A DNA stretch of 64,000 bases from an uncultured Verrucomicrobiae bacterium (GTDB lineage: Bacteria; Verrucomicrobiota; Verrucomicrobiia; Limisphaerales; BOG-1460): contig CAVXEG010000017.1 of NCBI GenBank assembly GCA_963760675.1, forward strand, positions 200,515-264,514, written 5' to 3'. The position numbers and the translations under genes were made by a program. Shown here one piece after another: positions 4,598 to 35,609 of this stretch (position 1 is the stretch's first letter; the number at the start of each line of letters is the position of its first letter). Below the pieces are notes generated by a model. It had not been told where the DNA came from and ran no database searches. It saw only the letters and a program-made list of their open reading frames with translations.

Positions 4598-4613
4598 AAA
4601 TCGAATGGCGCTT

Positions 4614-6299: not shown

Positions 6300-6301
6300 A
6301 A

Positions 6302-22963: not shown

Positions 22964-22994
22964 GTGACGGAACTTTGTCCTTTAATGACACAAC

Positions 22995-23036
22995 GCGGGC
23001 CGGAAGTGCAATGACGCTTCCGGCCCTTTCAATTTC
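22995..23036 (+). terminator. Hairpin gcgggccggaag..cttccggccc followed by TTTCAATTTC
   Basis: Sits after the anti-sigma stop. Leads directly into the first tRNA of block D. Confidence 0.5.
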
Positions 23037-23111
23037 GCGGTTGTGATTTAACAGCCAGAATGGCTCCTCGCCAGGGAGCATGTCCGGGCGCAACTCCCGG
23101 CGACCGCACCA
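23037..23111 (+). tRNA. tRNA-like. Anticodon region ambiguous (loop tcgccag, GCC-like). T-loop CGCAACT.
   Basis: Acceptor gcggttg/cgaccgc. Encoded CCA 23109-23111 followed by ATTT. Confidence 0.45.
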
Positions 23112-23120
23112 ATTTATAAT

Positions 23121-23194
23121 ACGCCGAGCGCCAGCTTGCGCAGCAGAGTCTCCAAAACTCCGTTTGCCTGGGGCAGCACCAGGGCGGCGTGCCA
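23121..23194 (+). tRNA. tRNA-Trp(CCA)-like, T-loop GGCAGCA
   Basis: Acceptor acgccga/gcggcgt. Anticodon loop ctCCAaa. CCA 23192-23194. Confidence 0.5.
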
Positions 23195-23204
23195 ATCATT
23201 TCAT

Positions 23205-23280
23205 GGGGCCGTGGCTGAAAAGTGAAGCGCCTGCCTTGCAAGCAGTGTCAAGCGGGAGCGTTACCCGCCGGACTCCACCA
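23205..23280 (+). tRNA. tRNA-Ala(TGC)-like, T-loop AGCGTTA
   Basis: Anticodon arm ctgc-ctTGCaa-gcag. Encoded CCA. Confidence 0.5.
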
Positions 23281-23286
23281 TTTCAT

Positions 23287-23364
23287 TGCGGGGAACTCGA
23301 CTAAAGCACAGAGCGAAGCCTCATAAACTTCGTCAGGCAGGTGTGATTCCTGCCCCCGCTACCA
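23287..23364 (+). tRNA. tRNA-like, possible CAT anticodon in an enlarged loop. T-loop TGTGATT.
   Basis: Acceptor tgcgggg/ccccgct. CCA 23362-23364 then TTTCC. Confidence 0.4.
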
Positions 23365-23369
23365 TTTCC

Positions 23370-23459
23370 GGGAAGTGATCCAGCCCGCGGCCTGTAAATC
23401 CGCAGTCACAAAACAGCGCTGGAAGATGACGACTGGAGCGTTACCAGCACTTCCCACCA
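23370..23459 (+). tRNA. tRNA-Tyr(GTA)-like, class II (long variable arm), T-loop AGCGTTA
   Basis: Acceptor gggaagt/acttccc. Loop ctGTAaa. 90 nt. CCA 23457-23459. Confidence 0.5.
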
Positions 23460-23571
23460 ACCTTCGCTCGAAGCTTCAGCAAGAGCGAGGTTGCCGCGCC
23501 ATGGCGAAGCGAAGGCGGGCGCAGCTCGTCAAAATGCAAAAACTTCGAGCTTCGTCTCGGCGGCCATTTCT

Positions 23572-23647
23572 GGATCCGTAGCTCAATCAGCAGAGCGCCC
23601 CGTTGTCTGCGGGAGGGTTAAGGGTGCAATTCCCTTCGGGTCCGCCA
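23572..23647 (+). tRNA. tRNA-Asp(GTC)-like, D-loop AATCAGCA, T-loop TGCAATT
   Basis: Clean cloverleaf: ggatccg ta gctc..gagc, anticodon loop ttGTCtg, aaggg-tgcaatt-ccctt, cgggtcc g CCA. Confidence 0.6.
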
Positions 23648-23648
23648 T

Positions 23649-23723
23649 CAGCGCGTAGTGTAGAAGCAACATGCTCGGCTTGGGACCGAGCGATCGCAGG
23701 TGCAAATCCTGCCGCGCTGACCA
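23649..23723 (+). tRNA. tRNA-Pro(TGG)-like, T-loop TGCAAAT
   Basis: cagcgcg ta gtgt..acat g ctcgg cTTGGga ccgag .. gcagg tgcaaat cctgc cgcgctg a CCA. Confidence 0.6.
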
Positions 23724-23798
23724 ATTCAATTGGTTCTTTCTCCGGTGCAGCAGGCCCGCCAGTTCTGCGGTGCCTCGCATCGTTGCAGACGGGAGTTG

Positions 23799-26295
23799 CT
23801 ACTGCAATTTCCATTCGAGAATACCCCCGGAGAAGCGAGGCCTGAGTTGGACTTCGAGCCGCAGAGCCGTCGTTTCAATCGCATCAAACTCGACACGATT
23901 GAAACAATTCAAGAGCACACCGAATTCGCCACGCGGACTGACAGGTCTCCATTCGTCGCCGTCTCTGTAAAGCAGCCGCCACGAGTCGGGCACACGGCAA
24001 CTGCCGATGCCAGTATCGTCAAACCAATAAACGCTGACGGCTGCGACGCGTTTCGGAGAGTCGAAATCATATTGTGCCCATTCGGCAGTGCCGCGATGAT
24101 CCCACCAGGTGAGGCGAGGAATGTCTTGGTCGTTGGAACTGGCGGGGTCGAGCCCGTCGCACATGGCATTCACCGTATCATTCTCAAAACAATGCGAAGC
24201 GGTGGGCTTGTACGCGGCTGGCCTCGGCTGAGGCGTGACGACCCACTCGTGCGCTTCGGCAGTGGTGCTGACTGTGGGGAAGCACGAAATGCGGAGACGC
24301 GCCGCGCCCATCGGAATGAGCGTGATGTGCTCGACCGGCTCGTCGGATTTCGCCGGACTTGGCTGAAGTTTGCCGACCGCGTGCTGAGGCGGTCCAGCCT
24401 GCCATTGCGGGATCTTGCGCGCTTTGCGCCTTGATGCGATCGGTGCGGTGTCCGGCGTGAACGGTTGCGGCGGCAGGGGGCCGCTCCGGCGGCTGACGCT
24501 AAAGGATTTCGCCGGGTCACGCGCGTCGAGCACAAGACCGTAGTTCCAGGGCGAGTCAGGAAAAACTTCCCACTCAGGCCAGTTGGCGATTCGGTCGCCG
24601 TATTTCTGCCAGCGTTCCTTGATCGCCAGCGAGAAGCTCAGCGGGCCATAGTCCACGGACACGGCGTCTTTATTCTTTGCCCAGACGCGGACGGAGAACT
24701 TCATCGGCAATTGCAGTTCAATAGTATCATCGTTTTTCCAATCGCGGTTGACCACGATGAATGAGAGCGGCTTTGGTTTTCACTTCGCTGCTCTGGCCGT
24801 TGATCTTGACGATGCGGCATCTCGCACCAGCGCGGCACGCGCAGGTAGAGCGGGAAGGTCGACCGCTTTGGGCATGGCGAGCTTGAACGCGATCGTGTCG
24901 CTGAACGGATAATCGGTTTCTTCGGTGATCTTCACCGGCGTGCCGTCGCCGACCTTCGCGCTGACTTCGCTGGCGGCGTAGAGCGAGGCGCACAGGCCGT
25001 TGTCGGCCGTGGCCAGCCAGAGTTCCTCGGCGTAGTACGGCCAGCCGTGCGAGACGTTGTGCTGGCAGCAGCGATAGACCTCGAACGGGCTGTAGGAGAA
25101 CATCGTGCCGCCGTTCTGCGACTGCCGGGCGCTTTGTTGTCTCGGTCGAGTTGGACCTGGTTGGCGCAGGTCAGGTAGTGCAGGCCCTTCTGGTCCGGCG
25201 TCATGCGCGGCGGGGAAAGTGTTGAACGCGATCTCCTCGCAGCGGTCGGCCCAGAGCGGGTTGCCGGAGATCTTCGTCAGCATCTCGAAGCTGTGCATGA
25301 ACTCGACGATGCCGCAGGTCTCGAATGCCGCCGCGCGGGTCGGCGTAAGCCGGGCCGGCAATTCTCGTCGCCGGCGAAGCCGCCGCCGGGGAACTGGCCG
25401 TAGAGGTCCATGACCTGTCTGGTAATTGCTGCTCCGCGGAATCGAGGTCTCCGGCTTCGTGCGACTGCAGCCAATAGACCGCGCCGGTCGCGGAAGCCCT
25501 GGGCGATGTTCACGTTGTGCCAGTTGATGCACGCCCGTGGTCCCAGCGCTGCCATGTTCTCGTGGATCTTCTGCGCCAGCTCGAGCAGCCATGCTTCGCC
25601 GGTGCGGTTGTAGAGCCAGTAGACGCTTTCGATGTTGTCGCCGGCGCGAATCTTCGGCCAGTAGCCCTCGCCGAATGCGCTCGGCCGGGAGCTGCGTTCT
25701 CCCACTTGAAGTATCGCGTCATCAGGTCGAGCACGCGCGGGTCGCCGCTGAATTCGTAATAGGACTGCAGCACGTTCAGCATGACCATGTGCGGCCAGAG
25801 GTCGGGCTTGCCGTTGCAAGCGAAGTCAGCAGGTCGCGCGGGCCGAACCAGCCGTCCGCGCGCTGGGTGGCGAGCATCGGCTTCGATCCATTCTTCGCTT
25901 CGGCGATGATCGCCTCGTCCTTGCAGCACGTAGCCGAGGTCGCCGTAGCCTTTGAGCCAGTAAGGCAGTTCCTCCCAGCCGCGTTCGCCCTTGCCTTGCT
26001 TGTTGGCCCAGGCGCTGCCCTCGAAATTGAGCCAGGGCGAAATCTCCTTCAGCCGGCCGGTCATGCCGTCGCGCTCCAGCTCGAGCTGATGCCGCAGCCA
26101 GCCGCGCGGCGTGATGCTGCCGATGGGCAGTTTCACGAACGGACTGGGTTCGAGCGGCGCGCGGTTGCTGACGTAGAAAGCGTTTGACGCGTTCACAGGC
26201 GGTCCGTCCACAACGCTCAGTTGCATTTGCGCGGTCGTGTATTGCGCGTTGCAGGCCAAAACCAAAATTCCGTAAAGCAGGGGAAGCCTGTTCAT
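23799..26295 (-). CDS. Glycoside hydrolase family 127 (DUF1680, beta-L-arabinofuranosidase-like), multiple frame changes
   Basis: Signal peptide MNRLPLLYGILVLACNA at 26295. Fragments in ORFs 25510..26304, 25277..25819, 24780..25592, 23799..24755 (YRCCQHNVSHGWPYY, VSVYWFDDTGIGSCRVP). Confidence 0.6.
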
Positions 26296-26329
26296 GGCCT
26301 TCAAATTCTTCTATTTCGCAGGCATGTAC

Positions 26330-28605
26330 GTTGACGATGCCGACGTCAATGTATTGCCCGCCAGTCGTTTGGTGGCAGTGAACGGCGAGGACGTTATTCG
26401 TCGGCTGAAGCGCGGCGCTGGCTTCTGGGCTCATCGGCACCTCTTCGTATTCCGTGCTGTAACCGCCTACTTGAGCGGCGAGCGCACCGTTCACGTAGAT
26501 TTCCGCGTCTTCGTCATGGTGCAAACGCAACTGGAGTTGTCCATCGGCGGGCCGTGCGGCGTTGCAGATGCGGCGCAGCCAAATGTCGGACGTGTTCCAG
26601 ATCGTCCCGACATGCGCGCCGGGCGTGCCGCGGCTGCCGAAGCCAGCCGGACTATCGTGCCAGCCGCTGTCATCGAAGCCGGGCTTGAACCAGTCGTCAC
26701 CTGGTTTGATCGTTGTGTAGCGCCAGATGAAGGTTTCGTTCTCGGAGGTGGGCACGACGGATCTAATCACGGGTGCCGGAGGTGGCGCGGTGTAGAGACG
26801 CTTTGCCGCCGTGATGGCGAGCGGGTCCATTTTCACAAGCGCGCGGTCGTAAGTCATGAGGCCATTGACCTCGACTTCGACGTCCGTGGTTGGGTGTAAA
26901 CGGCGGCGGCCAGTCCGCGCGTGCCGGTCAACGGATGGAGCTTGCCGAGCAAATCGACGTAAGCGTCGGTGAGATCGGCGTTGTTGGTGAAGCTGCGATA
27001 ACCCCAGTTCTTCTCGTCCTGCCAGGTGTGCCCGCGAACGGGCAGGCCGAGCCCGCCGAATTCGCCCAGCACACCAGCGCGATTCCTTCCGGCGCGGGGG
27101 CGCCGGGACCGGGATAATTGTGGATGTCCATCACGTCGCCGGAACCGCGATCGGTCCAGCCGCTGGCGTCATCCACCAGCCGCGTGGGATCGAGTTGCTT
27201 GATGAGCTCGGCTAGCGCGGCGTTTCGTACTGGCCCCAGCCTTCGTTGAACGGCACCCACATGACGATGCATGGGTGATTGCAGCGTCCATTGATGAGCG
27301 CCTTGAGTTCCTGCTCATACTCCGCGGACGCGTCGTCGAGCGGCGGCGGTCAGTGCGGTTTCGCCGAAATTACCGCTGGGCATGTCCTGCCAGACGAGCA
27401 GGCCGAGCTTGTCGCACCAGTAATACCAGCGATCCGGCTCAACCTTCACGTGCTTGCGCGCCATGTTGAAGCCGAGCTTCTTCGTCATCTCGATGTCGTA
27501 GCGCAGGGCTTCGTCCGTGGGCGCCGTGTAAAGGCCGTCCGGCCAGAAGCCCTGATCGAGCGGGCCGAATTGGAAGAGGGCTTGTTATTCAGACACAGGC
27601 GGTGAAGCCCTCCTCGTCTTTGCCCAGGGAGATTTTGCGCATGCCGAAGTAGCTCGACTTCGTCGCGCAGCCTCCTTTGTCGTCAAAGACTTGACCAAGA
27701 GGTCATAGAGAAATGGCGAGTCCGGCGACCAGAGCTTTGCTGTGCCAACTCGAGTGTGACCTCGCCAGGAAATTTCGTGCCAGCGGCGGAAGCACGGTCG
27801 TATCGTACGCAAAATGACCTAGAACTCTTCTTGGATTTACCTTCGAGGATCGACACTTTTGCCTCAAACAGATTGTTGTCTTTGCCGGTTACGAGCGTGA
27901 AAGCCACCTTCACGGTGAATTCTCCAAGTCTGGTGTAATTCTGATATTCTCGACGTGCGCGTCGTCACCGGCTCCAACCACACCGTCTGCCAAATCCCGC
28001 TGGTGGGCGTGTACCAAATGCCGTCGGGCTTCCGCACCGCTTGCCGCGCGGTTGAGGGCCGGCGTCGCTCGGATCGAACACCGCCACGACGATTTCCTGT
28101 TCGCCCGAGGGCTTGAGCGCGTCGGTGATGTCGAAGCTGAAGCCATCGTAGCCGCCCTGATGCGAGCCGAGCTCCTTGCCGTTCACCCAGACCGTCGTTT
28201 CCCAATCCACGGCGCCGAAGTTCAGCAACACGCCTGGTTGCGCCAGCCACGCGCAATCGTGAACGTGCGCCGATACCAGAGCCGGTTCGTTTCGTACACC
28301 CGCTTCATCACGCCGGACAACGCGGACTCGATCGGGAACGGCACCAGGATTTGTCCATCCCAAGTCGCCGGTTGCGGGGCGTCTTTGCCGGTGATGGCGT
28401 ACTCCCACAGCCCGTTCAGATTCTGCCAATCCTCGCGGACCATTTGCGGCCGCGGGTATTCGGGATGGGCGTTTTTAGGTGAAACGTCCTTGGCCCAGCG
28501 CGTCATCAGCGGTCCTTTGGCGGGCTGCCAGTCTGCCGCAATAGACACCAAGGTGATGCTTGCTAATGCAATGGCAGCCAGGCACAGCCTTGAGCATTTG
28601 ACCAT
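26330..28605 (-). CDS. Glycoside hydrolase family 2 (beta-galactosidase/glucuronidase-like) with extra C-terminal sugar-binding-like domain, multiple frame changes
   Basis: Signal peptide [91 protein letters not shown] and DIHNYPGP, scattered over ORFs 28222..28701, 27965..28429, 26928..27272 and 25826..26857. Confidence 0.55.
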
Positions 28606-28733
28606 AGAGTCTTCATTGTCTATGCGTCCGTATCCGGCCTGCAAGCACTGATTCCATGTGAACCGTCTCAACTTACTCTGCTTCCTTGGTGCCACGGCCA
28701 AAGCGAAAACACAGGTCTATGATCATATCAAAT

Positions 28734-28810
28734 TGCTGCCGTGGTCGAATACATCAGGCATCCGCCTTCTAAGCGGAACGATGCAGGTGAAAATCCTGCC
28801 GGCAGGCGCC
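28734..28810 (+). tRNA. tRNA-like unit (T-arm gcagg-tgaaaat-cctgc, ends cgCCA), cloverleaf not fully resolved
   Basis: Abuts tRNA-Asn-like unit. Acceptor pairing imperfect. Confidence 0.3.
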
Positions 28811-28812
28811 AT

Positions 28813-28887
28813 TGCCAGGTAGTGTCAAAGTAGCACGGCGGCCTGTTAAGCCGTTCGGTGTTGGTGCGAGTCCAACCCTGGCAGCCA
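28813..28887 (+). tRNA. tRNA-Asn(GTT)-like, D-loop CAAAGTA, T-loop TGCGAGT
   Basis: tgccagg ta gtgt..gcac g gcggc ctGTTaa gccgt tcggt gttgg tgcgagt ccaac cctggca g CCA. Confidence 0.6.
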
Positions 28888-28891
28888 ATTT

Positions 28892-28967
28892 CAGGGTGTA
28901 ATGTCAGCAGCAGACGGCCTTGTTCGGAACGAGGAGGTCGCAGGTGCAACTCCTGCCACCCTGACCA
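28892..28967 (+). tRNA. tRNA-Pro(CGG)-like, T-loop TGCAACT
   Basis: Acceptor cagggtg/caccctg. Anticodon arm ccttg-ttCGGaa-cgagg. CCA 28965-28967. Confidence 0.55.
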
Positions 28968-28971
28968 TTTC

Positions 28972-29058
28972 GGATGGTTGGCAGAGCAGTAATGCCCCGG
29001 TCCCGAAAACCGAGTGAGCCTCCGGGCTGCGTGGGTGCAATCCCTACACCATCCGCCA
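28972..29058 (+). tRNA. tRNA-Ser(CGA)-like, class II with long variable arm (gagcc..gggctg), T-loop TGCAATC
   Basis: 87 nt. Acceptor ggatggt/accatcc. Loop ccCGAaa. Discriminator G, CCA. Confidence 0.55.
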
Positions 29059-29223
29059 CTTTTAAACCCTTAACGAAAGGAAATCCCATGAAGCCCATTC
29101 TCCGTTATCAAAGCCAATTGCTCTTTCGCCGGAGCTACAAACCAAATCGGTGATGCGAATCCGACCGTGACGTCGAACCTCGTGTTCCGCCCGGCCGATT
29201 CGGCGCGAAGCCGCAATTCAAAC

Positions 29224-29297
29224 TGTCTCGTAGCTCAAAAGCAGAGCATCCGGCTGATAACCGGAAGACCGCGGAGCGTTACCGCGCGGGACAACCA
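29224..29297 (+). tRNA. tRNA-Ile(GAT)-like, D-loop AAAAGCA, T-loop AGCGTTA
   Basis: tgtctcg ta gctc aaaagca gagc a tccgg ctGATaa ccgga agac cgcgg agcgtta ccgcg cgggaca a CCA. Confidence 0.6.
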
Positions 29298-29299
29298 AT

Positions 29300-29374
29300 C
29301 CCCGAGTAGCTGAGACAGATTAGCGCCTCCCTGAAGCCGAGGAGACGTTGGCGCGATACCAACCTCGGGGACCA
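29300..29374 (+). tRNA. tRNA-Phe(GAA)-like, T-loop CGCGATA
   Basis: Acceptor ccccgag/ctcgggg. Loop ctGAAgc. T-arm gttgg-cgcgata-ccaac. Confidence 0.5.
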
Positions 29375-29412
29375 CTCAAAACCCATCCCGCTTGGCGGGC
29401 ACAAAAGGAAAC

Positions 29413-30564
29413 ATGAACACCTTGACTGAAACTCAGGTGCGCCTTTTCGCCTCGGCCCAAAGCTGGATCGAAGGCGAAGCGGTGCGCCAACTCTATGCCA
29501 CCGCGAAACTCGACGGCGTCCGCCGCGCGGTCGGCTTCCCGGATTTGCATCCGGGCAAAGGCTCGCCCGTCGGTGCGGCGTTCGTGACCGAAGGCGTGAT
29601 CTACCCGCACCTCATCGGCGGCGACATCGGTTGCGGCATGGCGTTGTTCAAGACGGACCTCGTCCGTCGCGACGCCAAGCTCGATCGCTGGGCCAAGCTG
29701 CAGTTCAACCTCGAACACCCGTGGGATCAGTTCGTCAGCGACTTCCTCGCTGAACACGATCTCGAATCCACGGAGTTCGATTCGGCGCTCGGCACGATCG
29801 GCGGTGGCAATCACTTCGCCGAATTGCAGACGGTCGAGAAGGTGCTCGACGCCGACGAGTTCAAGAAACTTGGACCTCGGCAAGCAGCAACTCGTCGTGC
29901 TCGTTCACAGCGGCTCGCGTGGATTGGGTGAATCCATCCTGCGGGCTCATGTGGATCAGCACTTCGGCAACGGAGTCGAAGCGGATTCGTTCGCGGCGGA
30001 GGAATATCTCCGCGGTCACGACTTCGCAGTCCGCTGGGCCAAGGCAAATCGCGAACTCATCGCGCGTCGCTTCGTTGCGACGCTCGGTGCGGAAGCCGAA
30101 TGCCTCTGGGACGGCTGCCACAACAGCATCACCCGCCATGGAAGCTGGTTGGATTCACCGCAAAGGTGCAGTTGCTGCCGACGGTGACTTCGTCGTGATC
30201 CCGGGTTCACGCGGCTCGTTGAGCTATCTCGTGAAGCCGATCGGCGATGGCGAAAGTCACGCCTGGTCGCTGGCCCACGGTGCGGGTCGCAAGTGGGCGC
30301 GCAGCGATGCTCGTCAGCGCATGCGCGAACGCTTCGGCATGCACCAATTGGTGCAGACGCCGCTCGGCGGCCGCGTGATCTGCGAAGAGCGCGACTTGCT
30401 CTACGAAGAAGCACCCGCCGCCTACAAAAACATTGAGGCAGTGATCGCAGGACCTCGTTGCTGCCGGACTCGTGTCCGTCATCGCGACGTTGCGACCACT
30501 CCTCACTTACAAGACGCGCAAAGCTTCGCCGCTAACGCGTCCATCATCGCCACGGAGGAACTGA
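29413..30564 (+). CDS. rtcB: RtcB-family RNA 3'-phosphate/5'-OH ligase (short form, ~380 aa), spread over 3-4 frames
   Basis: PDLHPGKGSPVGA, GGDIGCGM, GTIGGGNHF, LVHSGSRGLG, HRKGA, IPGSRG, HGAGR. C-terminus QDLVAAGLVSVIATLRPLLTYKTR in a shifted frame. RBS aaaaggaaac before the ATG. Confidence 0.7.
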
Positions 30565-30633
30565 GTCCACAGAGTTAAGGTCTGCCCGCGAGCAGCGACT
30601 CTGGGTTCTCATCCTCTGCGGCAACCATTTTCT

Positions 30634-30711
30634 GTCCGTGAATGCAAAGCAGCTCGAGCAGCCGGTCTTTCAAGCCGGGCCTAGTCGGTGCGAGTCCGAT
30701 CACGGATGCCA
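30634..30711 (+). tRNA. tRNA-Glu(TTC)-like, T-loop TGCGAGT
   Basis: Acceptor gtccgtg/cacggat. Anticodon arm ccggt-ctTTCaa-gccgg. CCA 30709-30711. Confidence 0.5.
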
Positions 30712-30715
30712 TTTT

Positions 30716-30793
30716 GCTCTCAAGGTGTAATTAGTTCTGCACGCCGCTCTGCGAAGGCGGAGGTTCGTGGTGCAAATCCACGTGAGAGCGCCA
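30716..30793 (+). tRNA. tRNA-like unit, anticodon unresolved. T-loop TGCAAAT.
   Basis: Acceptor gctctca/tgagagc. D-arm gtgt..gcac. CCA 30791-30793 then GTTTC. Confidence 0.4.
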
Positions 30794-30801
30794 GTTTCAA
30801 A

Positions 30802-30877
30802 GCCCCCGTGCCTCAGCAGCTACAGGGCGAGTTTCGTAAACTCGTATTCGTCGGTGCGAGTCCGACCAGGGGCTCCA
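30802..30877 (+). tRNA. tRNA-Thr(CGT)-like, T-loop TGCGAGT
   Basis: Anticodon arm cgagt-ttCGTaa-actcg. T-arm gtcgg-tgcgagt-ccgac. CCA 30875-30877. Confidence 0.5.
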
Positions 30878-31246
30878 GTTTCAAATGGTGATCATGATGT
30901 AACAGCAGCATCACGCCCCGTGAAGGCGTTTGTGCCGGTGCGAATCCGGTTGGTCCTGCCCAATTTCAGAATTTGAATCAGCCAGCAGCCACTCCGGCAG
31001 TTCGCCGGAACGGTTCTGCGCATGAGCTGGTTCAATCGCGGTTCGAATCCGCACGTTGGCTGATAACCAACTCCATTGGCTGGAGACGGGAGAAATCCCA
31101 CCACGGTTCGGGGCAGCGAGACCGGCGCGCAAGCGCAGCCCGAAGGCGGCTTTGTGAGAATTGCGCTGAGCGATTCTCCCGCCGCCGGACGGTGGTCTGC
31201 TGCTCTCGGGCTTTCAATTTTCAACCAGCAAGAAAGGAGAACACTA

Positions 31247-32030
31247 TGAACTACGAAATCATCATCATCGCAATCGGCATCGCCATCTATCGGCATCGTC
31301 ATCGGTCTGCCGCAGTCTGCTTCAGAATTCCGCCGCGCGTTCCTCGTGCCGGAAGGTTACGCCGGCCTGCTCTACCACAAGGGCAAGTTCGTCGGAAGTC
31401 CTCCGCGCTGGCCGACACATCCGCTGGGGTCGCCACTTCACGCTCGACGTGCAGGACCTCCGCAAGACGTCGCTGCTCGTGGCCGGTCAGGAAGTCCTCA
31501 CGGCTGACAACGTCGGCCTCAAGATCAGCCTGCTCGTCACCTACCAGGTGACCGACCCGGTCAAGGCTGCGCACGAAACGCAGAACTGGCAGGGCGACCT
31601 CTACAACGCCGCCCAGCTCGCGCTGCGCGCGGTCGTGGGCGGGGTCGCCGTCGAAGCGCTGCTCGGTCAGCGACTCGAAATCGGCGCGCAACTGCTGGCC
31701 CGCGTGCAGCCGGAAGCCGCCAAGATCGGCATCAACGTCCTCGCGGTCGAAGTGAAGGACGTGATGTTCCCGGCCGACCTCAAGCGCGCCTTCGCCGACG
31801 TGCTGAAGGCGAAGCAGGAAGGCCAGGCCGCGCTCGAACGCGCCCGCGGCGAAAGCGCCTCGCTGCGCAATCTCGCCAACGCGGCTCGTGTGCTGGAAGG
31901 CAATCCGGCGTTGATGAACCTGCGTCTGATGCAGTCGCTCTCGGCTGCGCAGAACGCGGGCAACACGCTCGTGCTCGGCATGCCCGGCGGCTTCGTGCCG
32001 TTGAAGAACGGCAAGCCAAGTTCGCCTGAA
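31247..32030 (+). CDS. SPFH/Band-7 (stomatin/prohibitin/HflC-like) membrane protein, N-terminal region in 3 frames
   Basis: TM N-terminus MNYEIIIIAIGIAIY. EFRRAFLVPEGYAGLLYHKGKFV. SPFH core in ORF 31449.. (LVAGQEVLTADNVGLKISLLVTYQV ... LAVEVKDVMFPADLKRAFADVLKAKQEGQAALERARGE). RBS aaaggaga. Confidence 0.6.
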
Positions 32031-32062
32031 CACAGGCCGAGGACGGAGCAAGTTAAACAACG

Positions 32063-32090
32063 CGGGCGGAGGCGAAAGCTTCCGCCCGCA
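32063..32090 (+). terminator. Hairpin gcgggcggaggcgaaagcttccgcccgc. Identical second copy at 32833-32863.
   Basis: Perfect 10-bp GC stem. The apparent in-frame read-through of the Band7 ORF across it has low GC3 and is treated as non-coding. Confidence 0.45.
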
Positions 32091-32147
32091 CTTTACAACG
32101 AATATTCAAACAACAAGAAACATGAAACCAATTACTTGAGAACAGTT

Positions 32148-32772
32148 ATGAAAAAAAATCAAGGCAAGGCCTCCGCCGATTTCCGTGTGGAGGTCCGGTC
32201 TTGGGGAAACTACGTCGAGCGAATCGCCGAGCTTGAAGCGAGCGCTCGCGAAGAAACCCACGAACGCTTCAAATCGAAATCGTCGGTGACGGGTGAAATC
32301 CCGGCGGACAGCGGCGTTGCGATTCCGCTCGGCATTGATGGAACGCTCACCGAGGACGCGGATTGTCACCAACGCGCGTTCCAGCCTGCAAGGCGGCTCG
32401 GTGCTGCTCTGGTTGCTGGGCGACACCGGACATTCGCGACGACGCGCGGCTCTATTTCCGTCGCACCACGTTGTCCGAGGACGACGAGGTGCCGGAGAAT
32501 GGAGCTGGGAGGACGACGAACCGAAGTATCGGGATTCGTATTCCGCGATTGATCCGGACGAAGGCGATTACGCGCGAGTGCTGCAACTCATCAATGAGTT
32601 CCTGCCGGTCAAGGAAATGGCCGGGCGACTCATCGGTGTGCCGGTGCTGCGGCAATTCGGTCTCATCGAAAACGAGAAGGTGGACAGTTTCCTGGCCACT
32701 GTGCTTTCGAAAAGCTCAGAGCCGAGCGAACGCCGTGAACGCAACGAATCAACAGCGTGTTGCGACGCGTGA
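32148..32772 (+). CDS. Hypothetical protein (~205 aa), frame change near 32400
   Basis: MKKNQGKASADFRVEVRSWGNYVERIAELEASAREE... continues in ORF 32293..32772 (EDDEPKYRDSYSAIDPDEGDYARVLQLINEFLPVKEMAGRLIGVPVLRQFGLIEN). Flanked by identical hairpins. Confidence 0.4.
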
Positions 32773-32832
32773 AAGCCCGCGCACGACAGATCGCAGATAA
32801 TCAGTTCAAGGACGCCAAGAGGCAGACAACAG

Positions 32833-32863
32833 TGCGGGCGGAGGCGAAAGCTTCCGCCCGCAC
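32833..32863 (+). terminator. Second copy of hairpin gtgcgggcggaggcgaaagcttccgcccgcac, followed by TTCAATTTC
   Basis: Identical to 32063-32090. Confidence 0.45.
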
Positions 32864-32874
32864 TTCAATTTCAT

Positions 32875-32949
32875 ATCCCGTTGGCCGAGCAGCTCAGGCG
32901 GCGGCCTGCAAAGCCGCAGAGGCTGGTGCGATTCCAGCACGGGATTCCA
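32875..32949 (+). tRNA. tRNA-Cys(GCA)-like, T-loop TGCGATT
   Basis: atcccgt tg .. gcggc ctGCAaa gccgc agag gctgg tgcgatt ccagc acgggat t CCA. Confidence 0.6.
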
Positions 32950-32955
32950 TTTCTT

Positions 32956-33030
32956 CGGGCATAGGTGTTGAGAGACACACGCCGGTCTTCCAAACCGGAG
33001 TACAGGGCGCGCTACCCTCATGCCCGTCCA
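32956..33030 (+). tRNA. tRNA-Gly(TCC)-like, T-loop CGCGCTA
   Basis: Acceptor cgggcat/atgcccg. D-stem gtgt/acac. Anticodon arm ccggt-ctTCCaa-accgg. Confidence 0.55.
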
Positions 33031-33032
33031 TT

Positions 33033-33117
33033 TCCCAAGTGAATCGGGTGCGTCGGCAGAGACCCCGCACGGTCGAAGTAATGGCCGGACACCCGATTCG
33101 GTGCGCTTGGGATTCCA
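33033..33117 (+). tRNA. tRNA-like unit, unresolved (85 nt)
   Basis: Ends ttgggat t CCA tttt. Internal pairing ambiguous. Confidence 0.3.
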
Positions 33118-33126
33118 TTTTCCGCG

Positions 33127-33199
33127 ACGCGAAATCCCGGTGTCGATCAGAACTTCACAGATCTGGCCGCGGTGGTTCAACTCCGCCTTCGTGTCGCGC
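33127..33199 (+). tRNA. tRNA-like unit with a canonical T-arm (ggtgg-TTCAACT-ccgcc) and no encoded CCA. The exception in the array.
   Basis: Acceptor acgcgaa/ttcgtgt. Anticodon arm unresolved. Confidence 0.3.
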
Positions 33200-33201
33200 T
33201 T

Positions 33202-33276
33202 GGGTTGCAAACTTTGACAGTGAAGTCCCGGCTCTTAACCGGCGAGAACTCGGTGCGAATCCGAGGCAACCCACCA
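33202..33276 (+). tRNA. tRNA-Lys(CTT)-like, T-loop TGCGAAT
   Basis: Acceptor gggttgc/gcaaccc. D-stem actt/aagt. Loop ctCTTaa. T-arm ctcgg-tgcgaat-ccgag. Confidence 0.55.
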
Positions 33277-33281
33277 TTTCC

Positions 33282-33357
33282 GCATCCGTGGTGAAATTAT
33301 TATCATCCTCCGCTTCGAACGGAGAGTTTGCAGGTGGGAGTCCTGCCGGATGCACCA
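33282..33357 (+). tRNA. tRNA-Arg(TCG)-like, T-loop TGGGAGT. Same anticodon as the host tRNA at the island boundary.
   Basis: gcatccg tg gtga..tcat c ctccg ctTCGaa cggag agttt gcagg tgggagt cctgc cggatgc a CCA. Confidence 0.55.
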
Positions 33358-33363
33358 ATTTAC

Positions 33364-33445
33364 GGGCATGTGGTTAACCCAATAGCAGAGGGTCCAGACT
33401 CAGAATCTGGCAGCCTTGGGGGTGCAAGTCCCTTCACGCCCACCA
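33364..33445 (+). tRNA. tRNA-like, anticodon loop ctCAGaa (Leu CAG-like), 82 nt
   Basis: Anticodon arm ccaga-ctcagaa-tctgg. T-loop TGCAAGT. Acceptor with one mismatch. Confidence 0.4.
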
Positions 33446-33449
33446 TTTC

Positions 33450-33532
33450 GCCCACGTGGCTCCAACGGAACAGCAGACCCGGCGCACTTAAAACGCGCAC
33501 AGTTCGGGTGCAAGTCCGACCGTGGGCACCGA
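33450..33532 (+). tRNA. tRNA-like, anticodon unresolved (possible TAA). Ends in CCG rather than CCA.
   Basis: Acceptor gcccacg/cgtgggc. T-loop TGCAAGT. Confidence 0.3.
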
Positions 33533-33615
33533 CCGGCGTGTAGCCCAATCGGAACAGCAGACCGGTTCCGCTCAAACCGGAAAGGTTGCAGGTGCAAGTC
33601 CTGCCACGCGGACCA
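33533..33615 (+). tRNA. tRNA-like, anticodon loop ctCAAac (Leu CAA-like)
   Basis: Anticodon arm ttccg-ctcaaac-cggaa. T-arm gcagg-tgcaagt-cctgc. CCA 33613-33615. Confidence 0.4.
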
Positions 33616-33619
33616 ATTT

Positions 33620-33707
33620 GGAATGTCCACCGGTCAAGCGCGCCGGGCCTCGGTGCTAACGAGTGCGTGCCTTCGGGCAAGTGGTGCAAGTCCACGGCAT
33701 TCCGCCA
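33620..33707 (+). tRNA. tRNA-Ser(GCT)-like, class II (88 nt, long variable arm), T-loop TGCAAGT
   Basis: Acceptor ggaatgt/gcattcc. Loop gtGCTaa. Variable arm tgcc..ggca. Discriminator G, CCA. Confidence 0.5.
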
Positions 33708-33712
33708 TTCAT

Positions 33713-33804
33713 GCGCGCGTAGCTCAAAGAGAGCCGGCGGCTTTATACCCCGCATCGCACTAGATCAGTGCCGGGATCCGGAGCGTTACCGGACGCGCGT
33801 ACCA
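33713..33804 (+). tRNA. tRNA-like, 92 nt. Anticodon loop region gctttatacc reads as TAT (Ile AUA) or TTA (ochre suppressor) depending on register. T-loop AGCGTTA.
   Basis: Acceptor gcgcgcg/cgcgcgt. ta gctc..gagc D-arm. Anticodon stem imperfect. Confidence 0.35.
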
Positions 33805-33808
33805 TTTT

Positions 33809-33884
33809 GTCCCCATAGCTCAAAACACAGAGCGGGCGCGTCCTAAGCGTCAGGTTGTCGGTGAGAGTCCGGCTGGGGACACCA
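33809..33884 (+). tRNA. tRNA-Arg(CCT)-like, T-loop TGAGAGT
   Basis: gtcccca ta gctc aaaacaca gagc g ggcgc gtCCTaa gcgtc aggtt gtcgg tgagagt ccggc tggggac a CCA. Confidence 0.6.
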
Positions 33885-33890
33885 ATTTCT

Positions 33891-33964
33891 GCGGGTGTGG
33901 TTCAACAGCAGAATGCGGCCGTGCCAAGGCCGAGACGACGGTGCGACTCCGTTCACCCGCTCCA
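33891..33964 (+). tRNA. tRNA-Gly(GCC)-like, T-loop TGCGACT
   Basis: Anticodon arm cggcc-gtGCCaa-ggccg. T-arm gacgg-tgcgact-ccgtt. Acceptor gcgggtg/cacccgc. Confidence 0.6.
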
Positions 33965-33969
33965 ATTTC

Positions 33970-34044
33970 GGGGGCGTAGCTCATCAGCAGAGCGCTCGTT
34001 TGACATGCGAGAGGCAAAGAGGGCAGCACTCTTCGCTCCCACCA
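33970..34044 (+). tRNA. tRNA-Val(GAC)-like, D-loop ATCAGCA, T-loop GGCAGCA
   Basis: gggggcg ta gctc atcagca gagc g ctcgt ttGACat gcgag aggca aagag ggcagca ctctt cgctccc a CCA. Confidence 0.6.
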
Positions 34045-34050
34045 TTTTCC

Positions 34051-34127
34051 GAGGGCATAGCTCAGCCAGTCAGAGCGGATGCTTCACATGCATCAGGTCG
34101 AAGGCGCGAATCCTTCTGCCCTCACCA
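34051..34127 (+). tRNA. tRNA-Val(CAC)-like, T-loop CGCGAAT
   Basis: gagggca ta gctc agccagtca gagc g gatgc ttCACat gcatc aggtc gaagg cgcgaat ccttc tgccctc a CCA. Confidence 0.65.
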
Positions 34128-34132
34128 TTTCT

Positions 34133-34210
34133 GTCCCTGTGGTGTAGTCCAGTCAACATGCCTGCCTCTCATGCAGGAGATCACCGGAGCGAAGCCGGTC
34201 AGGGACGCCA
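34133..34210 (+). tRNA. tRNA-Glu(CTC)-like, T-loop AGCGAAG
   Basis: Acceptor gtccctg/cagggac. Anticodon arm cctgc-ctCTCat-gcagg. T-arm accgg-agcgaag-ccggt. Confidence 0.6.
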
Positions 34211-34219
34211 ATTTCAATT

Positions 34220-34294
34220 GCCCTCAAAGCATTGTCAGCGATGCATTCGCTCGGTAAGCGAATCAGCTCGGTGCAATTCCGAGTGAGGGCTCCA
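34220..34294 (+). tRNA. tRNA-Thr(GGT)-like (anticodon loop tcGGTaa with C33), T-loop TGCAATT
   Basis: gccctca aa gcat tgtcagcg atgc a ttcgc tcggtaa gcgaa .. ctcgg tgcaatt ccgag tgagggc t CCA. Confidence 0.5.
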
Positions 34295-34297
34295 TTT

Positions 34298-34369
34298 CGC
34301 AGTCGAGCCAGCGCTCAAGTGGGTTTCATAAGCCCGCTGTGTCCGGGGCAGCACCGGAGACTGCGACCA
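34298..34369 (+). tRNA. tRNA-like with apparent 9-nt anticodon loop (tttCATaag), T-loop GGCAGCA
   Basis: Acceptor cgcagtc/gactgcg. T-arm tccgg-ggcagca-ccgga. Confidence 0.35.
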
Positions 34370-34374
34370 TTTCC

Positions 34375-34446
34375 GCCTCCATGCAGCAGCCTGCGGATTT
34401 CTTTTGTAAAGAATTCCTGCCGGAGCATCACCGGCTGGAGGCTCCA
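34375..34446 (+). tRNA. tRNA-like (72 nt), anticodon unresolved. T-loop AGCATCA.
   Basis: Acceptor gcctcca/tggaggc. T-arm gccgg-agcatca-ccggc. Confidence 0.35.
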
Positions 34447-34454
34447 TTCCATTT

Positions 34455-34529
34455 GCTCGCGTAGCCCAATGCAGAGGCACGACGTCGAGAACGTCGCCAG
34501 TGCAGGTGCAAGTCCTGCCGCGAGCACCA
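34455..34529 (+). tRNA. tRNA-like, anticodon loop tcGAGaa (GAG, Leu-type anticodon but short variable arm), T-loop TGCAAGT
   Basis: Acceptor gctcgcg/cgcgagc. Anticodon stem cgacg/cgtcg. Confidence 0.4.
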
Positions 34530-34536
34530 ATTTCAA

Positions 34537-34617
34537 GGAGTCGAAGCACAAAGCAGACCGGCACCGGACTTTTAATCCGTGAACATGGTGAGGTTGCAAC
34601 TACCTCCGGCTCCACCA
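34537..34617 (+). tRNA. tRNA-like (81 nt), anticodon region imperfect (possible TTT). T-loop TGCAACT.
   Basis: Acceptor ggagtcg/cggctcc. T-arm gaggt-tgcaact-acctc. Confidence 0.35.
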
Positions 34618-34623
34618 ATTCAT

Positions 34624-34698
34624 TGCCGGGTCGTCTAATCAGTAGGACACCGCCCTTTGAAGGCGACGGTGATGGTGCGAATCCATCCCCGGCAGCCA
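34624..34698 (+). tRNA. tRNA-Gln(TTG)-like, D-loop AATCAGTA, T-loop TGCGAAT
   Basis: tgccggg tc gtct aatcagta ggac a ccgcc ctTTGaa ggcga cggt gatgg tgcgaat ccatc cccggca g CCA. Confidence 0.55.
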
Positions 34699-34716
34699 AT
34701 TCAGTCGAGCTTCGAC

Positions 34717-34790
34717 CGCTCGGTGGTGAAATAGCATCACGTCTGGCCTACACCCAGAAATCGAGGGGGCAGAACCTTCCCGGGCGACCA
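34717..34790 (+). tRNA. tRNA-Val(TAC)-like (loop ccTACac, C33), T-loop GGCAGAA
   Basis: Acceptor cgctcgg/ccgggcg. D-arm gtga-aatagca-tcac. Anticodon stem tctgg/ccaga. Confidence 0.45.
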
Positions 34791-34797
34791 ATTCCAT

Positions 34798-34873
34798 TGC
34801 CTCGTGTGCATAATCAGCAGTGCGCCGGTCTCTGACACCGGAGAGTCTGGAGCAAAACCAGGCGAGGCAGCCA
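34798..34873 (+). tRNA. tRNA-Gln(CTG)-like, T-loop AGCAAAA
   Basis: Acceptor tgcctcg/cgaggca. Anticodon arm ccggt-ctCTGac-accgg. T-arm tctgg-agcaaaa-ccagg. Confidence 0.5.
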
Positions 34874-34944
34874 ATTTCGCCATTTCAACAAAGAACAAAC
34901 ACCTCAACGCGCGGAGCAGTCAGTGGCGGTGTGCAAACACTTTT

Positions 34945-35529: not shown

Positions 35530-35609
35530 AACAACGGGAGAGCGGGCGTCAAAGCTCGCTCTCCTAGCTTAAACTCAACAAACGAATCAAAATCTGCAAG
35601 CATCATCCC

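Follow-up and report, generated by a model that had tools for sequence, protein, structure and literature searches.

What horizontally transferred tRNA arrays do for the cells that carry them is a standing question, and a tRNA-rich genomic island of an uncultured Verrucomicrobiae bacterium raises it together with several handles for answering it, namely RtcB RNA ligases, an HNH endonuclease, a putative leader switch and a small basic protein. We analysed this island within a stretch of 64,000 nucleotides (GenBank assembly GCA_963760675.1, contig CAVXEG010000017.1, positions 200,515 to 264,514 of the forward strand), hereafter called the window and numbered from its first letter. A first-pass annotation made from the sequence had placed about 44 tRNA or tRNA-like genes in four head-to-tail blocks (23037-23723, 28734-29374, 30565-30962 and 32875-34873) and had taken them for functional isoacceptors rather than random repeats. 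Are these units tRNAs under selection, and what would a cell use such a set for? The explanation of the whole that we favour, with a probability of about 0.7, is that a single transferred array of the known L-array class has been split into four by insertions and serves as an auxiliary tRNA pool.

The four blocks hold 40 cloverleaf units, all on the plus strand and head-to-tail as had been described. Two of the searches that had been suggested as a check, ARAGORN and Infernal with the Rfam model RF00005, returned tRNAs in all blocks, amounting to 15 and 25 units, respectively; at default settings ARAGORN reported a host-type tRNA-Arg(UCG) in addition. Across the whole window RF00005 gave 20 matches at gathering score, and on 22500-35500 alone it matched 25 of the 40 units with at least 29 bits, the gathering threshold of the family, and one at 27.2 bits, with every match on the plus strand and inside the annotated blocks. 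We further employed a 3′-anchored scan, which looks for a 7-bp acceptor stem, a 5-bp T-stem with a 7-nt loop, a discriminator and CCA and is followed by a cloverleaf parse for the anticodons, and a covariance model (R1) that was built from 25 window units and run unfiltered on the window. R1 returned 37 island matches at E<0.01, 12 of them outside the training set, and also recovered the host tRNA-Arg. Addition of a tRNA-Ser(GCU) (33620, E 0.8), a Tyr-like unit (23370) and a tRNA-like element (33123) brings the total to 40. The earlier figure of about 44 probably included 23460-23571, 30556-30633 and 33031-33122, none of which is a cloverleaf: the first two fold no better than shuffles, and the third forms a hairpin common to only one relative. 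Outside the island, R1 also gave a weak match at 60134-60204 on the plus strand (20.9 bits, E 0.002), which falls within G/C-rich coding sequence and is probably false.

Apart from the Tyr-like unit and the element at 33123-33195, the units fold into a cloverleaf with a 7-bp acceptor and D, anticodon and T arms. The anatomy described for them was found again, with the 7-bp acceptor, a T-arm of 5+7+5 nt, a discriminator, a CCA that is encoded in 35 of the 40 units, and short spacers, which are A/U-rich and mostly 4-10 nt long within the blocks. Every anticodon that had been read is confirmed by the cloverleaf parse, and the coverage of nearly all amino acids extends to all 20, with about 36 distinct anticodons of which only Gly-GCC and Met-CAU occur twice. 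Ten units had been overlooked: Met CAT (two copies), His GTG, Arg TCT, Arg GCG, Lys TTT, Leu TAA, Thr TGT, an Ile-like TAT and the second Gly GCC. The density amounts to about 11 units per kb in block 4 (23 units in 32875-34873, 2.0 kb) and to 3.4 per kb over the whole region (40 in 11.8 kb). The window contains 12 matches to an array signature, GGTGCRANTCC-N11-CCAWTTY, and shuffles contain none. The repeat families detected in the array reflect only the shared T-arm and 3′ end, and the gene order is non-periodic. The spacer motif CAATTTC was considered as a processing signal and dropped, as its mild excess (25 observed vs 13.8 expected) stems from the array itself.

Few nucleotides in biology are as strongly conserved as U55 (as Psi55) and G18. 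In the window, 39 of the 40 units have G55 instead of U55 (G55-C56 in 35 of them), and the D-loops of these G55 units lack the GG dinucleotide and read A18-G19 rather than G18-G19; the canonical combination of G18-G19 with U54-U55-C56 is absent from 39 of the 40. That the T-loops are not of the T-Psi-C type had escaped the first-pass annotation. The difference is illustrated by tRNA-Arg(UCG), which is present both in the array and as the host gene: acceptor and T stems are identical, while the D-loop is AAUUAUUA in the array and AAUUGGAUA in the host copy and the T-loop UGGGAGU in the former and UUCAAGU in the latter. The tRNA-like element at 33123-33195 is the sole array unit with a canonical T-loop (UUCAACU).

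The same coupling of D-loop and T-loop recurs in other genomes, in over 1,000 related tRNAs from bacteria of soils and lakes, mostly Verrucomicrobiota. A filter for a fully paired 7-bp acceptor, a 5-bp T-stem, an encoded CCA and well-formed D and anticodon arms retained 999 units from 240 loci and the window. Of these, 402 of 408 units with a UUC T-loop have GG in the D-loop, and 431 of 478 with an NGC T-loop lack it (Fisher p 1.6e-187). In G55-type units, C56 accompanies the D-loop G in 911 of 928 cases, compared with 66 of 129 for units without C56 (p 6e-49), and the base preceding this G is A in 80% of them but G in 84% of canonical units. A model-aligned set of 150 units yields the D-loop consensus A14-R-Y-A18-G19-N-A21 (A18 in 138/150, G19 in 134/150) and the T-loop consensus U54-G55-C56-R57-A58-N-U60 (G55 in 149/150). 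Positions 54 and 58 covary (U:A 298, G:G 65, A:U 52, C:A 29), and the resulting T-loop subtype is isoacceptor-specific across genomes. The main T-loop type reads G55-C56-R57-A58, a GNRA-like sequence. While the genome and viral loci were ascertained by their T-loop pattern, a second sample of contigs was chosen by a motif of the leader RNA described below and without any tRNA feature; its 425 downstream units comprise 364 with an NGC T-loop and none with UUC. Cyanobacterial and viral arrays retrieved with the same pattern are mostly canonical, with a few G55-type members. The simplest reading of this covariation is that an A18-G55 contact would replace the G18-Psi55 contact while G19:C56 is kept. 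We found no description of a natural whole A18/G55 tRNA set in the limited library that we searched, and the elbow, like the leader RNA, the tRNA-Tyr without D-arm and the small open reading frame (ORF) treated below, appears to be undescribed so far. As standard finders miss much of the G55-type family, surveys of tRNA arrays that rely on such tools may undercount.

Low model scores might be taken for degeneration, and the units for decaying tRNA pseudogenes or functionless tRNA-derived repeats. The median RF00005 score of the array units is about 46 bits compared with 71.9 bits for the host tRNA-Arg, some units have no CCA or carry mismatches, and three inter-unit stretches are not cloverleafs. 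We strongly disfavour this explanation and hold it to be very improbable, since, across 150 units of other genomes, 98.0% of cells form standard cloverleaf pairs, compared with 37-45% when the partners are slid, and two-sided changes are seen in 20 of the 21 cloverleaf pairs. In 89 comparisons of window units with units of the same anticodon elsewhere, at 70-98.5% identity, pairing was kept at 181 stem pairs changed on both sides and broken at 2; among pairs changed on one side, it was kept at 124 and broken at 21. The same coupled deviation of the elbow is found everywhere, with a T-loop subtype specific to the isoacceptor, which is not what random decay produces.

The features by which synthetases recognise their tRNAs are conserved as well. 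The discriminator fits the anticodon in 87% of 1,057 G55-type units and in 88% of canonical units of the same loci. Among the G55-type units, tRNA-Ala carries G3:U70 and A73 in 63 of 63, tRNA-Cys U73 in 43 of 43, tRNA-Asp G73 in 72 of 73 and tRNA-Trp G73 in 12 of 12; tRNA-Asn has G73 in 72/73 and U1:A72 in 68/73, and tRNA-Pro A73 in 72/72 and C1:G72 in 68/72. Conserved features read by synthetases also include the 1:72 pair in the tRNAs for Asn, Pro, Gln and Trp. The model-aligned set further keeps U8, A14, Y48, U33 and R37. The G55-type tRNA-Gly units have A73 in 66 of 81 cases, not the usual U73. Conserved pairing, compensatory changes and retained identity elements together indicate selection on folding and on specific aminoacylation, and hence argue for selected, predicted chargeable tRNAs rather than pseudogenes. 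The claim of functional isoacceptors is borne out to this extent, with 98% cloverleaf pairing, compensatory changes and identity elements that fit the anticodons.

Charged tRNAs could also act off the ribosome, as decoys or sponges for toxins that attack tRNAs or by donating amino acids to non-ribosomal reactions, which is how the staphylococcal non-proteogenic tRNA-Gly species operate. Elbow changes of this kind are known from tRNAs that are kept out of translation (PMC13443448; PMC4574755), C33 takes the place of the near-universal U33 in 16% of G55-type units compared with 2% of their canonical neighbours, some units have irregular anticodon loops or miss the D-arm, and a sponge role has been raised for the cyanobacterial array (PMC8421152). 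However, 20 amino acids, about 36 anticodons, U33 in 83% and R37 in 94% of the G55-type units correspond to the needs of a decoding set and not to those of a decoy. Moreover, the conserved neighbours include no genes of the Fem, MprF or cyclodipeptide-synthase type, the T-stems are ordinary and G/C-rich, and the exclusion of the staphylococcal tRNAs from translation has been attributed to their EF-Tu determinants and not to the elbow. On balance, we regard a role of the array outside translation as unlikely.

Individual units, all on the plus strand, are given here with their RF00005 and R1 scores in bits and with ARAGORN named where it reported them. Block 1 opens with tRNA-Gly(GCC) at 23037-23111 (T-loop CGCAACU, C33, A73; R1 62.2 as a training unit, no RF00005 match), followed by tRNA-Trp(CCA) at 23121-23194 (T-loop GGCAGCA, A1:U72, G73; R1 23.9, E 2.8e-4) and tRNA-Ala(UGC) at 23205-23280 (T-loop AGCGUUA; RF00005 33.3, R1 49.5), in which G3:U70 and A73 fit, on a hand reading, if one A of the acceptor 3′ strand is bulged. 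The tRNA-Met(CAU) at 23287-23364 has an initiator-like acceptor (UGCGGGG/CCCCGCU) with a 1:72 mismatch and the T-loop UGUGAUU (R1 36.9). The tRNA-Tyr(GUA)-like unit without a normal D-arm at 23370-23459 (T-loop AGCGUUA, A73, CCA), tRNA-Asp(GUC) at 23572-23647 (ARAGORN; RF00005 49.1) and tRNA-Pro(UGG) at 23649-23723 (ARAGORN; RF00005 59) complete the block. Block 2 comprises tRNA-Arg(UCU) at 28735-28811 (T-loop UGAAAAU, irregular 3′ end C-GCCA; RF00005 41.9, R1 51.4), tRNA-Asn(GUU) at 28813-28887 (ARAGORN; RF00005 53.6), tRNA-Pro(CGG) at 28892-28967 (RF00005 44), tRNA-Ser(CGA) at 28972-29058 (class II with a long variable arm, C33, G73; ARAGORN; RF00005 36.9), tRNA-Ile(GAU) at 29224-29297 (T-loop AGCGUUA; ARAGORN; RF00005 52.9) and tRNA-Phe(GAA) at 29300-29374 (T-loop CGCGAUA; RF00005 40.9). 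Block 3 consists of tRNA-Glu(UUC) at 30634-30711 (R1 61.7), tRNA-Arg(GCG) at 30716-30793 (RF00005 52.2), tRNA-Thr(CGU) at 30802-30877 (ARAGORN; RF00005 45.8) and tRNA-His(GUG) at 30888-30961 (irregular 3′ end G-CCCA, C33; RF00005 35.5, R1 43.8).

Block 4 starts with tRNA-Cys(GCA) at 32875-32949 (U73; ARAGORN; RF00005 51.7) and tRNA-Gly(UCC) at 32956-33030 (T-loop CGCGCUA, U73; R1 52.4). After the tRNA-like element at 33123-33195, which has a terminal stem of 9-11 bp and no CCA, come tRNA-Lys(CUU) at 33202-33276 (R1 61.8), the tRNA-Arg(UCG) compared above at 33282-33357 (ARAGORN; RF00005 51.5), tRNA-Leu(CAG) at 33364-33445 (short variable loop, A73; RF00005 27.2, R1 32.1), tRNA-Leu(UAA) at 33450-33531 (8-nt T-loop register, 3′ end CCG instead of CCA; R1 24.7, E 1.8e-4), tRNA-Leu(CAA) at 33534-33615 (short variable loop, A73; RF00005 30.7, R1 45) and tRNA-Ser(GCU) at 33620-33707, a class II unit with G73 that was found by the anchored scan with 7/7 acceptor pairs (R1 only 11.3, E 0.8). 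The unit with the anticodon UAU (Ile AUA) lies at 33713-33804 (T-loop AGCGUUA, A73; ARAGORN in relaxed mode; R1 18.5), ahead of tRNA-Arg(CCU) at 33809-33884 (T-loop UGAGAGU; ARAGORN; RF00005 46.6), the second tRNA-Gly(GCC) at 33891-33964 (U73; ARAGORN; RF00005 53.2), tRNA-Val(GAC) at 33970-34044 (T-loop GGCAGCA; RF00005 43.1), tRNA-Val(CAC) at 34051-34127 (ARAGORN; RF00005 62.1), tRNA-Glu(CUC) at 34133-34210 (ARAGORN; RF00005 51.5), tRNA-Thr(GGU) at 34220-34294 (C33; ARAGORN; R1 64.2) and the second tRNA-Met(CAU) at 34298-34369 (short D-arm, T-loop GGCAGCA; R1 29.5, E 8.5e-6). The remaining units are a tRNA-Thr(UGU)-like unit at 34375-34446, whose anticodon loop may be 9 nt long (ARAGORN in relaxed mode; R1 41.4), a 72-nt tRNA-Leu(GAG) at 34455-34529 without a long variable arm (C33; ARAGORN; RF00005 47.4), tRNA-Lys(UUU) at 34537-34617 with an extended variable region (RF00005 31.7, R1 30), tRNA-Gln(UUG) at 34624-34698 (U1:A72, G73; ARAGORN; RF00005 56.7), tRNA-Val(UAC) at 34717-34790 (T-loop GGCAGAA, C33; RF00005 39.3) and, as the last array unit, tRNA-Gln(CUG) at 34798-34873 (RF00005 37.8).

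Several members depart further from the ordinary tRNA. In the Tyr-like unit, no ordinary D-arm is formed; nucleotides 10-15 instead make a helix with a strand that follows the anticodon arm. Fifty-five distinct copies of this unit occur elsewhere; in 29 aligned copies pairing in the helix 10-15/50-55 reaches 97.7%, 3 of the 6 pairs have changed in a compensatory way, and the whole structure is 96.6% paired compared with 30-49% when slid. A long class-II arm had been ascribed to both the Ser and the Tyr units; this holds for Ser(CGA) and Ser(GCU), while the length of the Tyr unit is not due to such an arm. The array Leu units have short variable loops (that at 33534 was parsed by hand). The UAU unit combines a class-II-like body, with a long variable hairpin of conserved sequence (GCACU-AGAUG-AGUGC; 7 orthologues/loci), with an isoleucine anticodon. 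The element at 33123-33195 is conserved with covariation in 9 loci and has an anticodon-like loop that contains UCA; a tRNA-Sec match is weak (19.3 bits, E 8). Arrays also harbour a small, very basic ORF, MKPVIRYQSQLLFRKSYKP..RIRP, of 40-50 amino acids (36 loci by tblastn), which belongs to no Pfam family. The window copy is truncated after 21 codons, and this remnant at 29088-29153 on the plus strand begins MKPILRYQSQLLFRRSYKPNR and is preceded by a Shine-Dalgarno-like AAGGAAA.

A structured non-coding leader RNA of about 650 nt precedes arrays of this type, and in the window it occupies 19840-20510 on the plus strand. Its 3′ domain, which ends in a hairpin at 20473-20500, is highly conserved, and its 5′ domain is more variable. 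At least 12 related genome contigs carry, immediately ahead of their first tRNA, a sequence of 70-80% identity to this RNA. The first tRNA usually starts 50-200 nt past the conserved leader motif. A 35-nt motif of the 3′ domain occurs in at least 120 metagenome contigs; 82 of these contigs extend at least 600 nt downstream, and in 67 of the 82 a tRNA unit follows within 3 kb. For 57 diverse leader copies, RNAalifold predicts a structure whose 5′ and 3′ parts contain 64 and 72 pairs, which are 88% and 91% paired, respectively, compared with 31-46% when slid, and several helices carry compensatory changes. Apparent ORF matches lie on both strands, with no conserved ORF and no 3-nt periodicity, and a coding sequence was therefore rejected. 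A conserved intrinsic terminator (20134-20161 and a U-tract) closes the 5′ part, and the upstream segment GGUAAGCAGG at about 20094-20104 is identical to the terminator 3′ strand. Since it equals this strand, the segment can pair with the terminator 5′ strand or, alternatively, with ACUUGC near the leader 5′ end. From this layout we infer a transcription-attenuation switch as the putative function of the leader.

In relatives, the four blocks are contiguous. They map to 3795-4723, 4729-5455, 5455-5877 and 5984-6724 of one related locus (L014), adjacent to each other, from which it follows that the gaps of 5 kb, 1.2 kb and 1.9 kb in the window are insertions at tRNA boundaries. Relatives likewise join window position 20486 directly to 23014. 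The intervening segment 20500-23014 carries a gene for an extracytoplasmic function (ECF) sigma factor (20664-21266) and a 527-amino-acid ORF without a family match in Pfam (21253-22836), both on the plus strand, and this pair is a window-specific insertion bounded on either side by a copy of the roughly 65-nt terminal hairpin region of the leader; tblastn found neither protein in any related locus. The second, partial copy consists of the last ~65 nt of the leader (22974-23038, plus strand; found with nhmmer), contains a hairpin at 22997-23026 (fold z-score -6.0) and abuts the first tRNA.

In a scan of one genome per species with the array signature, contigs with several matches came almost only from Verrucomicrobiota, the signature-bearing groups being Verrucomicrobiaceae, Opitutaceae, Chthoniobacter, Limisphaerales, Prosthecobacter, Akkermansiaceae and Pedosphaera. 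Some 8-kb slices hold at least 20 units, and R1 finds 512 units in 38 signature loci. Such relatives, together with flank domains such as DUF1570, also point to the phylum of the host. The island proteins were searched by tblastn against all fetched loci, with matches to the HNH endonuclease in 26, RtcB copy 2 in 15, RtcB copy 1 in 12 and the SPFH protein in 5 loci; the integrase gave a single weak match of 27% identity (L081). Clustering of neighbour genes was dominated by spurious ORFs read through tRNA genes, and what stood out were HNH, RtcB, the small basic ORF and one 280-amino-acid family without assignment (8 loci). HNH homologues are also found on plasmids of Nostoc, Acaryochloris, Tolypothrix and Mycobacterium, and tRNA arrays have been described in the groups of Nostoc, Acaryochloris and Mycobacterium. 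On the Acaryochloris marina plasmid pREB6 (L361, 73440-75830), the homologue adjoins a plasmid-borne methionyl-tRNA synthetase gene, with no tRNA genes within 6 kb of it, and the region was therefore of no use as a comparator array. The closest relative of block 4, the HNH gene and RtcB copy 2, at 79-88% identity, lies on a contig (L119, DATJRH010000015.1, 256001-262857) of a metagenome-assembled genome labelled Candidatus Aquilonibacter (phylum Vulcanimicrobiota), and this label points to either a cross-phylum transfer or a binning or labelling problem.

This distribution also bears on whether the array is the remnant of a prophage tRNA cluster, which would have matched phage codon usage or replaced host tRNAs cut in defence and would have no bacterial role. 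Some G55-type units do occur in IMG/VR viral contigs, one of which (L160, 83 kb) has 20 units with an NGC loop in a scan for a 7-bp acceptor, a 5-bp T-stem and CCA as well as an HNH homologue; HNH endonucleases and RtcB both have phage families in PHROG, and phage tRNA clusters with homing endonucleases are well known. Pfam searches of the neighbour genes on two viral contigs (L160 and L183) gave no decision on their phage status. However, viral contigs mostly carry canonical UUC-type tRNAs, while conserved arrays with a colinear order recur in many bacterial genomes. In the island, neither Pfam nor a PHROG search of the unannotated ORFs revealed genes for phage structure or replication. The phage collection had no match to the array region in near mode or to the leader RNA in distant mode, the plasmid collection none to the leader RNA, and the leader motif, for all its metagenome contigs, has 0 matches in IMG/VR. 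A megablast of 20000-44000 found nothing in phages and one irrelevant 200-bp match in plasmids, hence no relative. A phage origin of this kind therefore appears to us improbable, even more so than a role outside translation.

The array is part of a tRNA-gene-integrated genomic island, with both tRNA-3′-end repeats and a tyrosine recombinase present. The island of 38.4 kb spans the distance between two perfect 62-bp direct repeats (repeat family D3, 100% identity), at 12329-12390, its left boundary, and at 50718-50779. Each repeat includes the terminal 46 nt at the 3′ end of the host tRNA-Arg(UCG) gene (50734-50810, minus strand; ARAGORN, RF00005 71.9 bits), which is the integration site and has a canonical elbow; the claim of integration into a tRNA-Arg gene is thus confirmed by repeats that span the tRNA 3′ end. 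The array tRNA-Arg(UCG) duplicates this host gene, and on that unit the array is supernumerary. A tyrosine-recombinase (phage integrase family) catalytic domain is encoded at 14297-15007 on the plus strand (PF00589, E 6.5e-17), in a gene that is possibly truncated or frameshifted. RtcB RNA ligase copy 1 sits between array blocks 2 and 3 in two reading frames (29392-29931 and 29919-30578, plus strand; PF01139, E 9e-24 and 5e-23) and has a homologue of 83% identity in a related locus (L053). The gap between blocks 3 and 4 holds a cassette at 30973-32772 on the plus strand with a 192-amino-acid ORF, an SPFH/Band-7 protein (31449-32552; PF01145) and a 159-amino-acid ORF (32293-32772), which is also present in L053 and L026. 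Directly 3′ of the array, an HNH endonuclease of the homing type (34804-35529, plus strand; HNH_4, E 6.8e-9; PHROG 16726) probably has its true start downstream of 34873, and an intact RtcB copy 2 follows at 36382-37593 on the plus strand (PF01139, E 3.3e-52; PHROG 1075). The island further carries restriction-type nucleases, namely a split REase-ARP and an Mrr with a Top1 zinc ribbon, as well as an IS110-family transposase (15057-16964, 43886-45073).

A terminator scan of 20000-38000 gave no overall enrichment, though individual hairpins are real. Very stable G/C-rich hairpins followed by UUCAAUUU lie at 32056-32093 and 32828-32865 on the plus strand and also at 20473-20500 and 31194-31212. 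The one directly 5′ of block 4 (32831-32864, plus strand; repeat family D4) is followed by UUCAAUUUCA, has a fold z-score of -9.5 and is 95% identical to its copy at 32056-32093. The context of a hairpin with UUCAAUUU resembles the CCA-AUUUC context 3′ of tRNAs, and such hairpins could be terminators or processing sites. Outside the island, a gyrB/parE-like topoisomerase gene at 53776-55744 on the minus strand is broken over at least three reading frames. Hence, the assembly probably holds indel errors, and the frameshifts in RtcB copy 1, REase-ARP, the integrase and the small ORF may be artefacts.

How could such an array work? We consider a regulated auxiliary tRNA pool, inferred by analogy with the cyanobacterial L-array, its most likely function. 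The array would be transcribed as long precursors, from which RNase P and 3′ trimming would release the units, and the host synthetases would charge them. As in the cyanobacterial L-array, these tRNAs may form an auxiliary pool for times when resident tRNAs are damaged or translation is impaired. RtcB would repair cleaved tRNAs, the HNH enzyme would promote the spread of the array, and the leader RNA may gate transcription into it through its alternative of terminator and antiterminator. The A18/G55 elbow would keep the tertiary contact and free the tRNAs from factors that read the canonical G18/Psi55 elbow, which could be modification enzymes or nucleases directed at the elbow or the T-loop; this predicted invisibility to canonical-elbow factors is the least certain part of the scheme. 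A bolder version would see in the locus a complete mobile second tRNA set that is made orthogonal to readers of the canonical elbow and T-loop by A18-G55, is headed by a riboswitch-like leader and includes, in its tRNA-Tyr, the first bacterial tRNA without a D-arm. The readers evaded by such a set would be toxins, modification enzymes and possibly regulatory RNAs. We regard this version as conceivable yet doubtful.

Several observations weigh against a single transferred array that serves as an auxiliary pool. The yield of ARAGORN at default settings is low, and 14 of the 40 units have no RF00005 match even at E<=10. Defects of individual units include 3′ ends other than N73-CCA at 28735, 30888 and 33450, the lack of such an end at 33123 and stem mismatches, although single-nucleotide oddities in some tRNAs may be assembly artefacts, and C33 is raised among the G55-type units as stated above. 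In the window, the leader is parted from the array by a 2.5-kb insertion, and both RtcB copy 1 and the integrase are interrupted. A scan of 20000-38000 for sigma-70 promoters gave matches no commoner than in shuffles, and no promoter was identified. Finally, the only documented natural tRNAs without G18-G19 and U55 that we found, the staphylococcal non-proteogenic tRNA-Gly species, are excluded from translation (PMC13443448; PMC4574755).

As an array, the locus is not new. L-arrays comprise up to 43 tRNA genes, are horizontally spread, lie beside a homing endonuclease, are associated with rtcB and have been reported from seven phyla including Verrucomicrobia (PMC8421152), and with its neighbourhood of this type the window array is a member of that class. 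The cyanobacterial L-array, the trn operon of Anabaena (Nostoc sp. PCC 7120) and its relatives, has in Anabaena 23 of 26 tRNAs aminoacylated in vivo, is induced by translational stress and is co-regulated with rtcB (Santamaria-Gomez et al. 2021, PMC8421152). Both arrays are long, non-periodic and on a single strand, cover most amino acids, are supernumerary to the host set and lie on mobile DNA with HNH adjacent and RtcB nearby, and the window HNH has a homologue on a cyanobacterial contig (L043). However, the units of this contig, taken from a scan for a 7-bp acceptor, a 5-bp T-stem and CCA with a score filter on D-arm and anticodon arm, have a canonical UUC T-loop in 8 of 10 cases, while 39 of 40 window units have G55. 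The Anabaena array is regulated via direct repeats in its promoter, whereas the window array type is preceded by the structured RNA of about 650 nt; expression and charging have been demonstrated for the former and are predicted for the window array. Tran et al. (2016) define an array unit by a minimum of 20 tRNA genes with 2 or more per kb (PMC4758250), values that the window array exceeds. Horizontally acquired arrays likewise exist on an integrative and conjugative element of Acidithiobacillus and on chromosomes, plasmids and phages of Mycobacterium (PMC4758250; Morgado and Vicente, PMC5966550), in other phyla; we found no match to the window array or leader in the plasmid and phage collections and no report of a G55/A18 elbow in those arrays. 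In phage tRNA clusters such as the segB region of T4, tRNA genes are also accompanied by a homing-type endonuclease that is thought to spread the cluster (PMC8421152), while the window array lies on a non-phage island, holds a much larger tRNA set and has the altered elbow.

Mycobacterial arrays are accompanied by the large structured RNA GOLLD (PMC4758250; PMC5966550), and GOLLD and ROOL are large structured non-coding RNAs often found beside tRNA islands (PMC12286853). The leader RNA is likewise large, structured and adjoining a tRNA island. It has no match in Rfam, these two families included (cmscan of 19500-20700, E<=10, noise only), it differs from them by an internal intrinsic terminator with a competing strand, and while they are borne by phages or prophages, the leader is absent from IMG/VR and the phage collection. 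We therefore propose it as a candidate new class of large structured, tRNA-array-associated RNA alongside GOLLD and ROOL.

With respect to the elbow, the nearest precedent is that of the staphylococcal tRNA-Gly species NP1-NP3, which are aminoacylated and lack G18-G19 and U55 (PMC13443448; PMC4574755), just as the window units lack GG and U55. They carry U18U19 or C18U19 and hence no G19, whereas the window units keep G19:C56. The staphylococcal tRNAs serve one amino acid, feed Fem transferases and have an extra 31:38 pair and weak EF-Tu determinants, while the window array covers 20 amino acids and has no Fem-like neighbours. With more than 1,000 tRNAs for all 20 amino acids, the G55-type family amounts to a ready-made experiment on the purpose of the elbow. 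The first-pass view of the array as unusual thus shifts in its object: long mobile tRNA arrays are an established class, and what sets this one apart is its elbow, its leader RNA and its odd members.

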